DNA from: a virus
Lineage: Duplodnaviria; Heunggongvirae; Uroviricota; Caudoviricetes
Virus record (IMG/VR): IMGVR_UViG_2721755651_000007
Direction: 5' to 3' (one strand)
Length of the DNA: 64,000 nucleotides
Shown here one piece after another: positions 47,563-49,210 of this stretch. Below the pieces are notes generated by a model, which had not been told where the DNA came from, made no database searches, and worked only from the letters and a program-made list of their open reading frames with translations. How positions within the stretch are numbered: the first letter of the stretch is position 1; the number at the start of each line of letters is the position of its first letter. The position numbers and the translations under genes were made by a program.

Positions 47563-48621
47563 TCATCCGTTACGAATGATTAAATCCTGTACTTCCCGCA
47601 CCGTCTGCTCAAAACGTTCAGTCTCCAGTTCAACGCCAGTTGCACGACGTCCCAGCGCCATCGCTGCTTTCACTGTCGACCCCGACCCCATGAAGAAATC
47701 TGCAACCAGGTCTCCCGGACGACTGCTTGCGCTGATTATCTGCTGCAACATTTCTGCCGGTTTTTCGCACGGATGTTTCCCTGGATAGTACTGCACCGGT
47801 TTATACGTCCACACATCGGTGTACGGCACCTGCACCGTCACACCGAAATACCGCCGCAGATGCTTATATTCACTCTGCAGCTCCGCATACTGTCGGTTCA
47901 GAGAGGCATACGTATCCACCAGCTGGTGGTGGGGCTTTTCCAGTTCACCCCGCTGATGCTTCTCTTCTGCCACCCGGGCAAACAGTGCCTGTAATTTCAG
48001 ATAATCGCTTTCGTTCGGCAGCTGCCACTGACCGGCACTGAACCAGTGCGACACCATGTTTTTCTTTCCTGTGGCATCTGCAATCTGTTTTGCCGTTATC
48101 CCCAGGACAGCGCGCGCATCACGAAAGTAAGCAATCAGCGGGGCCATCACATGCTGTTTCAGTGTCCTACCCTTCGCCTCATACCCGGCATCTTTCGGAC
48201 GATACGGCCCCTGATAATGCTCTGCGAACAGAATGCGCTCTGTGGCGGGGAAATACGCCCGCAGGCTTTCCTTGTTGCACCCGTTCCAGCGTCCGGACGG
48301 CTTTGCCCAGATGATATGGTTCAGCACGTTAAACCGCTCACGCATCATGATTTCGGTGTCAGATGCCAGACGATGGCCACAGAACAGGTAAAGACTTCCG
48401 GCAGGTTTCAGCACCCGCCAGAACTGCGCAAGACACTGGTCCAGCCACTTCAGGTAATCTTCATCACCCGCCCACTGGTTATCCCAGCCCTCGGGTTTCA
48501 CTTTGAAGTACGGCGGGTCCGTGACTATCAGGTCAACAGAATTTTCGGGTAACGACCGCATAAATTCCAGGCAGTCGGCGTTGATTAACTCACAACTGGA
48601 TATTTTTACAGTATTAAGCAT
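47563..48621 (-). CDS. orphan DNA N6-adenine/N4-cytosine methyltransferase (DPPY motif)
   Basis: 352 aa; IVTDPPYF motif near N-terminus; no adjacent restriction endonuclease gene. Confidence 0.8.
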   Translation of the reverse strand: MLNTVKISSCELINADCLEFMRSLPENSVDLIVTDPPYFKVKPEGWDNQWAGDEDYLKWLDQCLAQFWRVLKPAGSLYLFCGHRLASDTEIMMRERFNVLNHIIWAKPSGRWNGCNKESLRAYFPATERILFAEHYQGPYRPKDAGYEAKGRTLKQHVMAPLIAYFRDARAVLGITAKQIADATGKKNMVSHWFSAGQWQLPNESDYLKLQALFARVAEEKHQRGELEKPHHQLVDTYASLNRQYAELQSEYKHLRRYFGVTVQVPYTDVWTYKPVQYYPGKHPCEKPAEMLQQIISASSRPGDLVADFFMGSGSTVKAAMALGRRATGVELETERFEQTVREVQDLIIRNG

Positions 48622-48771
48622 GGATCATTAAGCCTGTCTCTGATAGGCTCATTCTGCTTTTGCGCAAAGCAGTGGGCCTGAGGTTTGCTTGTGAACCCAA
48701 CGCATGAGCAGATGGCTGGTGGGTGCCCCTTACACCCACCAGCCGCCCATTTACCACAAATAAAAAAGCCT

Positions 48772-49092
48772 TCAGGACTGAAGGCGTCTGTAACAACCAA
48801 ACTGATAGTCTGCCAGACCCGCCATAACCAGCTGGGTCAGTATTAACTGGCAGCGTTCGCGTGAAAGGTAAGTATTCTGCGCAATCTCCCCGACTGTCGC
48901 CGGGTCGGTAACGCTTAATTCATTAAACACCACTCTGGCGGTTTCTGTCATATCCTGCTGTTTCAGCATGTCTTTTTCCCTTTTCCGGTTAACGTGACAC
49001 ACCAATAACTCTTGTCGAAAAAGCCAGCAACCTGAAAGAACGGTATTAATAACCACCAGCGAATTTATTGCGCTGCTGTATATTACGGACAC
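48772..49092 (-). CDS. hypothetical small protein, first ORF of late operon (paralog of 348..668)
   Basis: ~90% identical to 348..668 product; follows tR'-like terminator. Confidence 0.45.
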   Translation of the reverse strand: MSVIYSSAINSLVVINTVLSGCWLFRQELLVCHVNRKREKDMLKQQDMTETARVVFNELSVTDPATVGEIAQNTYLSRERCQLILTQLVMAGLADYQFGCYRRLQS

Positions 49093-49113
49093 AAAAAAAC
49101 CACCTTCCGGTGG
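49091..49113 (-). terminator. intrinsic terminator (tR'-like) downstream of Q
   Basis: CCACCGGAAGGTGG hairpin + T7 on minus strand. Confidence 0.5.
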
Positions 49114-49210
49114 CTTCCTTGTGCGAAAAAACTTGCATTTCGCCTCGCGATACAGCTTTGCGAAGCTTACAGGAATTCAAGCTGTTTCTGCGTAAAAAAG
49201 CAAGCTTTTT

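Follow-up and report, generated by a model that had tools for sequence, protein, structure and literature searches.

The 64,000-nucleotide (nt) stretch analysed here, hereafter the window, belongs to the Caudoviricetes record IMGVR_UViG_2721755651_000007 of IMG/VR, and the second gene downstream of its Q-like late antiterminator encodes an orphan, prophage-borne DNA methyltransferase of the M.EcoGII family. Our favoured explanation of this locus, to which we give a probability of roughly 0.8, is that the methyltransferase is a cargo enzyme that is silenced in the lysogen by terminators and, probably, by an antisense RNA, is made after induction, and then methylates phage DNA. The gene itself is already known, being annotated in a reference pathogen genome, and its family is biochemically characterised and sold as a reagent. 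What is new lies beside the gene: an RNA element, conserved but so far uncharacterised, which is probably an antisense small RNA (sRNA). Covarying, marked by an independent Hfq signal and placed exactly at the start of the gene, it makes the regulation of M.EcoGII-type enzymes directly testable. The element could also be added to RNA family databases.

Attention was drawn to the locus by an original prediction that placed an orphan DPPY methyltransferase at 47563-49120, as the second gene of the late operon. That span does contain the methyltransferase, and it also takes in a small open reading frame (ORF), both terminator hairpins and a structured intergenic region of 150 nt; the conserved RNA element and the second terminator, which lie between the first ORF and the methyltransferase, had been missed.

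An orphan methyltransferase of the M.EcoGII family

The methyltransferase of 352 amino acids (aa) that had been predicted is real: its ORF runs from ATG to stop, and the Pfam domain PF01555 (N6_N4_Mtase) spans residues 29-340 with an E-value of 2.4e-43 and 149.1 bits, the gathering threshold being 26.7 bits. The DPPY tetrapeptide (residues 35-38) is catalytic motif IV, (D/S)PP(Y/F), in the N-terminal part of the protein, and the S-adenosylmethionine (SAM)-binding motif I, FxGxG, occurs as FFMGSGST near residue 309 in the C-terminal part; the order of motif IV, recognition region and motif I is typical of beta-class amino-methyltransferases. Among sequences of the Protein Data Bank, the beta-class enzymes RsrI, CcrM, MboIIA and DpnA match together with N4-cytosine enzymes, and the alignments of RsrI, CcrM and MboIIA fall into N- and C-terminal blocks. 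The claim that there is no cognate endonuclease also held, since none of the 10 neighbouring ORFs scanned gave a restriction or defence match with PADLOC or Pfam.

Hundreds of O157:H7 genomes contain a region of 1.9 kb around the gene with 100% identity, the gene there being annotated 'DNA-methyltransferase', and the region is equally 100% identical to the lambdoid prophage Sp9 of Escherichia coli O157:H7 Sakai, in which ECs_1778, ECs_1779 and ECs_1780 are labelled 'phage antiterminator', 'hypothetical' and 'DNA methylase' respectively. Of 5426 complete E. coli genomes, 3386 match some part of this region, the median number of places in a genome being two. Over its full length the protein is identical to M.EcoGII at 325 of 350 aligned residues (approximately 93%, a lower bound because the M.EcoGII reference, Table S1 of PMC11551740, was machine-read from PDF text and carries a few reading errors), and across the recognition region (residues 135-259) identity is approximately 90%. 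M.EcoGII methylates adenine whatever the surrounding sequence, in DNA, RNA and DNA:RNA hybrids, and belongs to 'a very large family' in E. coli prophages (PMC5778455).

A conserved RNA element beside the methyltransferase gene

The intergenic stretch of 150 nt that separates the small ORF from the methyltransferase start keeps its architecture in every diverged group; its long hairpin varies by compensatory substitutions, while the flanking genes are saturated at synonymous sites. This RNA element is the only match that covariance models R1 and R2 give in the window. A five-helix model of the sense strand gives one match per locus, always abutting the methyltransferase ATG, with 79 matches in 99 sources. 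The element was found before M.EcoGII-family methyltransferases in at least 15 genera of Enterobacterales, including Escherichia, Salmonella, Klebsiella, Enterobacter, Citrobacter, Kluyvera, Buttiauxella, Mixta, Rosenbergiella, Yersinia, Ewingella, Rahnella, Providencia, Proteus, Morganella and Lonsdalea.

Structures were proposed by hand and the sequences then re-aligned with covariance models, in place of RNAalifold on plain MAFFT alignments, which recovered the invariant helix P1 only because the variable hairpins were misaligned. In the sense model 85.9% of cells are paired, compared with 31-41% in slid controls, and both sides have changed at 29 of 37 pairs (12-14 in the controls). The four-helix model of the antisense strand has 92.7% of cells paired (37-49% in slid controls), with each helix at 89% or above, compensatory double changes at 25 of 33 pairs, and a covariation score of 0.320 (0.055-0.077 in slid controls). 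For either model, none of 500 shuffles was equally good.

The element appears to be new. A permissive scan of the window region with Rfam 15 (E up to 1) returned only a 24-bit, chance-level match to P26, the element had no Rfam match in ten diverged loci, and a literature search found no RNA motif described beside the M.EcoGII-type methyltransferase family. A SAM or S-adenosylhomocysteine (SAH) riboswitch was considered and set aside, a three-way junction being its sole support and an Rfam match being absent.

The RNA is probably made from the antisense strand

The same helices can be drawn on both strands (Table 1), and several lines of evidence point to the strand opposite the methyltransferase. 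On the alignment fitted to the sense model, A·C or C·A cells number 195 in helices P1 to P4 and G·U cells 57, an excess that favours the antisense strand because A·C cells are G·U pairs there. In helix P3 the share of paired cells is 71% for the sense and 92% for the antisense strand, and 52 of the 79 sequences fold more stably as antisense RNA. The most conserved unpaired block of the element, TGnTAGGCT, resembles an extended -10 promoter motif and is a candidate antisense promoter; on the sense strand it is the 'loop' AGCCUAnCA of P5, the weakest sense helix. Its conservation follows the promoter pattern position by position, with TG in 76 of 79 sequences, T-12 in 78 and both A-11 and T-7 in all 79, while the 'n' position varies. 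Neither a -35 element nor, among the listed starts, an experimental start site was found for the antisense RNA.

Independent evidence comes from EcOnc49, an orphan peak of Hfq crosslinking (crosslinking and analysis of cDNA, CRAC) at 1772764-1772808 on the '-' strand of Sp9, present in three datasets (PMC4104026 Table S2). Its old coordinates were anchored on the exact sequence of EcOnc03, 1.7 kb away, which places EcOnc49 on the + strand of the window at 48656-48700 (or 48659-48703), antisense to the methyltransferase 5' untranslated region (UTR), and with its 5' edge coincident with the predicted antisense start. A literature search found EcOnc49 mentioned in the text of no paper. In PMC4104026 Table S2 it carries an 'x' in the terminator column, which is blank for sRNAs with known terminators; we read the 'x' as no predicted terminator within 200 nt.

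An antisense sRNA of the EcOnc49 family is the probable identity of the RNA element. A more specific proposal, which we put forward tentatively and at somewhat less than even odds, is that M.EcoGII-type methyltransferases carry a dedicated, hitherto undescribed cis-antisense sRNA of approximately 100 nt, visible in Sakai as the EcOnc49 peak alone and consisting of a three-way junction and a 5' hairpin, whose extended -10 promoter overlaps the translation-initiation region and which would silence leaky expression of the gene in the lysogen, as a safety module within the late operon resembling type I toxin-antitoxin systems. Such an sRNA might also act in trans via Hfq.

Several observations count against an antisense sRNA. 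Covariance-model alignments lean towards the structure that was modelled; EcOnc49 is without northern blot confirmation (PMC4104026 Table S2); 3' of the antisense RNA there is no canonical terminator, only a hairpin followed by CGCCCAUUU(U); and in helix P2 the G·U cells exceed the A·C cells, 42 to 23. The Cappable-seq start listed for strain EDL933 (see below) is on the sense strand. A sense leader would be compatible with a cis-antisense pair.

The structure may instead work on the sense strand, as a cis-regulatory 5' leader exerting translational control, providing a processing site or acting like a riboswitch, in which case the antisense signal would be incidental. We regard this as rather unlikely, while giving it more credit than any other alternative discussed below. 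A leader would account for the constant position of the element, directly next to the start codon and behind a sense-strand terminator, for the pairing and strong covariation of the sense model, and for the G·U cells of P2 and also of P5 (74, with 23 A·C). The methyltransferase lacks a normally spaced Shine-Dalgarno sequence, and AUGGGC could pair alternatively with two downstream GCYCRU segments. The leader reading accords poorly with the weaker sense pairing of P3, the A·C excess across P1 to P4, the greater stability of most antisense folds and the Hfq peak on the antisense strand; and P5 is weak, its conserved 'loop' being exactly TGnTAnnnT on the other strand. The two readings are not exclusive, as cis-antisense pairs share mirrored helices. 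One version of the leader was rejected: as a stem sequestering the ribosome-binding site, P5 has 72% of its cells paired, and its 'loop' is better explained as the -10 motif of the opposite strand.

Some homologues have other leaders. At six loci (L138, L142, L143, L146, L149 and L154) with methyltransferases 53-57% identical and without the small ORF, a different conserved element lies approximately 150 nt upstream, with the form GATGCCTTGAGTACCTGAGACCC..GGAGAGGAAGCA..hairpin..TTCAAGGCTC, and is followed by a strong AAGGAG ribosome-binding site; it too has no Rfam match. In Xenorhabdus (L198-L215, L219, L222-L224, L227 and L235) the methyltransferase is 65-67% identical and the small ORF lies approximately 77-101 nt upstream; the leader there is shorter and different, with one variable hairpin, and the covariance models give no match. 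Within the gene itself, a hairpin ACUGU..ACAGU in codons 3-11 (window 48614..48590, -) is kept in most homologues and is inseparable from coding conservation.

Terminators, the late promoter and probable silencing in the lysogen

The placement of the methyltransferase as second late ORF was borne out: counted from the Q-like antiterminator it is the second ORF, it shares its strand with the lysis genes, and two intrinsic terminators separate it from Q. At the position of the second terminator, diverged loci carry an equivalent hairpin and T-run with a different stem sequence, and the annotation of phage SfV places a terminator at the same relative position as the first. Where viral loci have other Q alleles, they become homologous to the window from approximately 49110-49060, just past the first terminator; one module therefore comprises Q, pR', qut and tR', and the next the small ORF and methyltransferase. 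Indirectly, this boundary places the expected late promoter and qut site in the interval 49211-49113.

M.EcoGII is harmful or toxic to cells when expressed and is silent in the lysogen, and both M.EcoGI and M.EcoGII are reported as unexpressed in lysogens (PMC5778455). From this reported silence of homologues, together with gene position, we infer that expression depends on Q, as the original prediction had proposed. In the lysogen, transcripts from the late promoter would end at the two terminators, as the anatomy of the locus and its homologues suggest, while an antisense, Hfq-binding RNA may be made from a promoter occupying the ribosome-binding region of the methyltransferase. This RNA, or its transcription, could suppress read-through expression of a toxic enzyme and so provide a plausible safety catch. 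On induction, Q-modified RNA polymerase should pass both terminators, and the product of the small ORF and the methyltransferase would then be made with the lysis and morphogenesis proteins.

Some results fit less well with silencing of this kind. Between Q and the first terminator (49211-49113) no consensus promoter and no qut site were found; a promoter scan found no consensus sigma-70 promoter for pR', the methyltransferase or the antisense RNA. Among the starts listed from Cappable-seq of strain EDL933 is a weak sense start 47 nt before the ATG, in one of nine conditions, at NZ_CP008957 position 1857982 (+), which corresponds to window position 48668 (-) and lies inside the structured element; some Q-independent expression of the methyltransferase is therefore possible.

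Role of the methyltransferase

Before packaging, replicating phage DNA would be methylated on most adenines, making it less vulnerable to many restriction systems of the next host; protection from restriction is the role favoured, rather than shown, by the authors of both PMC5778455 and PMC11551740. A main role directed at the host or at RNA, through shutdown of host expression or repair in lytic growth or through RNA methylation, seems to us improbable. The activity of M.EcoGII on RNA and DNA:RNA hybrids and its harm to cells (PMC5778455) would suit such a role, and its biological role is stated as unknown (PMC11551740), whereas activity on DNA is far above that on RNA (initial velocity 11.1 vs 0.12, Table S3), late timing suits the modification of DNA about to be packaged, and the authors' own preference is for restriction protection.

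Still less probable is a functionless passenger in a defective prophage, never usefully expressed and shared by O157 strains through recent common ancestry alone. Defective lambdoid prophages are indeed frequent in O157, 100% identity across O157 genomes is uninformative about selection, and many Stx2a phages retain only the last 37 codons of the gene (PMC10462455). Here the frame is intact with all catalytic motifs present, and the ratio of non-synonymous to synonymous substitution (Ka/Ks) is approximately 0.10 against homologues with diverged or saturated synonymous sites, so the methyltransferase is under purifying selection; moreover, the family and its upstream RNA element are conserved across the genera listed above, and the methyltransferase is present in functional phages such as SfV.

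The original prediction had described an 'adenine/cytosine' enzyme with a motif that could be found by comparing induced and uninduced lysogens, which is at odds with the near identity to M.EcoGII. M.EcoGI, identical to M.EcoGII at 333 of 349 residues, is classed as non-specific (PMC5778455). Homologues from O111, with 92-93% amino-acid similarity, are listed as 'nonspecific', and uninduced O111 cells yielded no extra motif (PMC6602927). The reconstructed ancestors tested, Anc291 and SUPREM, which are much more diverged, stay non-specific, and among site-specific relatives even the nearest, M.PflMI, is distant and lies outside the M.EcoGII clade (PMC11551740). By homology, the present allele is predicted to methylate adenine in any context, so that there would be no recognition motif to find. 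Two reservations apply: non-specificity is known for M.EcoGII and the reconstructed ancestors only and is a prediction for this allele, and the errors in the M.EcoGII reference make the residue-level comparison imperfect. A site-specific orphan enzyme with a defined motif appearing on induction is nevertheless very improbable, for although most PF01555 enzymes are site-specific (RsrI, CcrM, MboIIA) and some 12 substitutions separate the recognition region from that of M.EcoGII, the high identity to a proven non-specific enzyme, the classification of M.EcoGI and the O111 homologues, the non-specific ancestors and the position of M.PflMI all stand against it. From a non-specific family, 'no new methylation motif on induction' is what an active enzyme would be expected to give, and such a result, put forward as a refutation, would mislead; a motif search could wrongly 'refute' an active enzyme, and the right read-out is global N6-methyladenine (m6A) on phage DNA.

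Comparison with known systems

The closest characterised relatives, M.EcoGII and M.EcoGI of E. coli O104:H4 C227-11 (Murray et al. 2018, PMC5778455), share the layout of DPPY, recognition region and FxGxG and are likewise prophage-borne orphans; M.EcoGII differs in its length of 349 aa, in a slightly different C-terminal end and in approximately 25 substitutions, of which the recognition region holds 12. The orf47-orf48 region of SfV (NC_003444) has the same order of Q, terminator, an ORF of 64/65 aa (94% identical), methyltransferase (81%) and lysis genes, and shares the spacing of approximately 150 nt and the RNA element, but has another Q type and no tRNAs, sRNAs or nanS-p between methyltransferase and holin.

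A 'moron' site at PR' has been described for prophages of enterohaemorrhagic E. coli (EHEC) (PMC4104026), and the methyltransferase is cargo at this site downstream of Q, in the same position as stx in Shiga toxin (Stx) phages. Downstream of Q, methylases of 352 aa, or remnants of 50 aa, are documented for Stx2a phages (PMC10462455), most of which have only a remnant of 37-50 aa; many Stx2a-converting phages retain residues 316-352 alone (for example, HG792104.1 and AP004402.1), consistent with stx displacing most of the methyltransferase at the same site.

As with hok/sok-type antisense RNAs, the RNA here is short, structured and opposite the 5' UTR of a toxic gene; with the Hfq-binding sRNAs AgvB, AsxR and StxS of EHEC prophages it shares the PR' moron site and, through EcOnc49, a reported crosslink to Hfq in the lysogen. 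It differs from both in having neither an Rfam match nor a canonical terminator, and it begins at approximately -35, without overlap with the methyltransferase start codon. An Hfq peak at the first terminator, like that of StxS, was not found in the Sakai peak table.

The com-mom operon of phage Mu provides a late, host-toxic and loosely specific adenine modification under layered control, in which a small regulatory ORF precedes the modification gene and an RNA structure lies where that gene begins. The likeness to the present locus is functional only, an analogy with no relationship of sequence or fold: Com is a zinc-finger translational activator, while the small ORF here encodes a winged helix and is absent from approximately 18 loci.

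The small winged-helix ORF

The first ORF of the late transcript has 65 aa from the ATG at 48969, or 106 aa if the GTG at 49092 is used, and 333 homologues. Its AlphaFold model (one of five models only) has the topology helix-helix-helix-beta-hairpin with a pLDDT of 90, and its fold matches are generic: IclR, MarR, the N-domains of O-methyltransferases and SelB. With a Ka/Ks of 0.05 against SfV orf47, it is under strong purifying selection. In 125 of 149 viral loci the methyltransferase is preceded by this ORF, and the pairing persists where the two proteins have diverged to 24% and approximately 60% identity. Eighteen genome loci, however, keep the RNA element and the methyltransferase without it, which rules out an obligatory partner of the methyltransferase, whether as a controller protein, as a reader of m6A or, like Mu Com, as an RNA-binding activator. 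A restriction-modification C protein was rejected also because the fold is a winged helix rather than an Xre helix-turn-helix and there is no nuclease gene. The winged-helix ORF is thus a frequent but dispensable neighbour.

Genomic context

On the minus strand the genes follow the order hokD, a DUF968 protein, RusA, Q, the T7 hairpin, the 65-aa ORF, the T6 hairpin and the methyltransferase, and 3' of the latter come tRNA-Ile(CAU), tRNA-Arg(UCU), STnc100, EcOnc03 (+), the NanS-p-type esterase, holin, DUF1327 and lysozyme (Table 1). EcOnc03 is convergent both with the late transcript and with STnc100.

Table 1. Positions of the methyltransferase, its regulatory features and neighbouring genes in the window
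Feature	Position	Strand	Evidence and remarks
Methyltransferase ORF	48621..47563	-	ATG to stop, 352 aa; M.EcoGII-family beta-class N6-adenine methyltransferase; Sakai ECs_1780; WP_000935548.1
Conserved four-helix RNA element	48654..48763	+	Opposite methyltransferase 5' UTR; same helices on - strand (48762..48619) as 5' leader
Extended -10-like motif TGATAGGCT	48641..48649	+	TGnTAGGCT; candidate antisense promoter; predicted start G at ~48656
Second terminator-like hairpin	48785-48762	-	GCCTTCAG..CTGAAGGC then T6 (terminator scan); overlaps stop codon of winged-helix ORF
Winged-helix ORF, 65 aa (ECs_1779; NCBI 'TrmB family transcriptional regulator')	48969..48772	-	First ORF of late transcript; PHROG 331, E 1.9e-37
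First intrinsic terminator after Q, candidate tR'	49113-49093	-	CCACC-GGAA-GGTGG then T7; read from sequence
Q-like late antiterminator (DUF1133 family; ECs_1778)	49753..49211	-	Pfam DUF1133, E 1e-110; Phage_antitermQ, E 1.4e-8; PHROG 'anti-termination protein Q-like'
hokD-type type I toxin	51996-52208	-	Early-right region
Adhesin gene paa (AcfC family)	52487-53245	-	Early-right region; annotation as in strain TR01
tRNA, anticodon CAT	47447..47522	-	ARAGORN: Met; RefSeq: tRNA-Ile (ileZ), lysidine-modified Ile2 type typical of Stx-like phages
tRNA-Arg (UCU), argO	47290..47366	-	tRNA call and annotation
STnc100 sRNA	46972..47180	-	Rfam RF02076, 175 bits
EcOnc03, AgvB/AsxR-type anti-sRNA	46917..46967	+	Rfam AgvB, 56.6 bits; exact match to EcOnc03 sequence of PMC4104026
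NanS-p-type sialate O-acetylesterase	46823..44913	-	Pfam; intact, 636 aa
Holin	44868..44548	-	Pfam
DUF1327 protein	44546..44199	-	Pfam
Lysozyme	44148..43615	-	Pfam

In strain TR01 the NanS-p-type esterase is annotated as two pseudogene fragments, though the methyltransferase region is otherwise 100% identical (compared stretch: L001 11535-12355).

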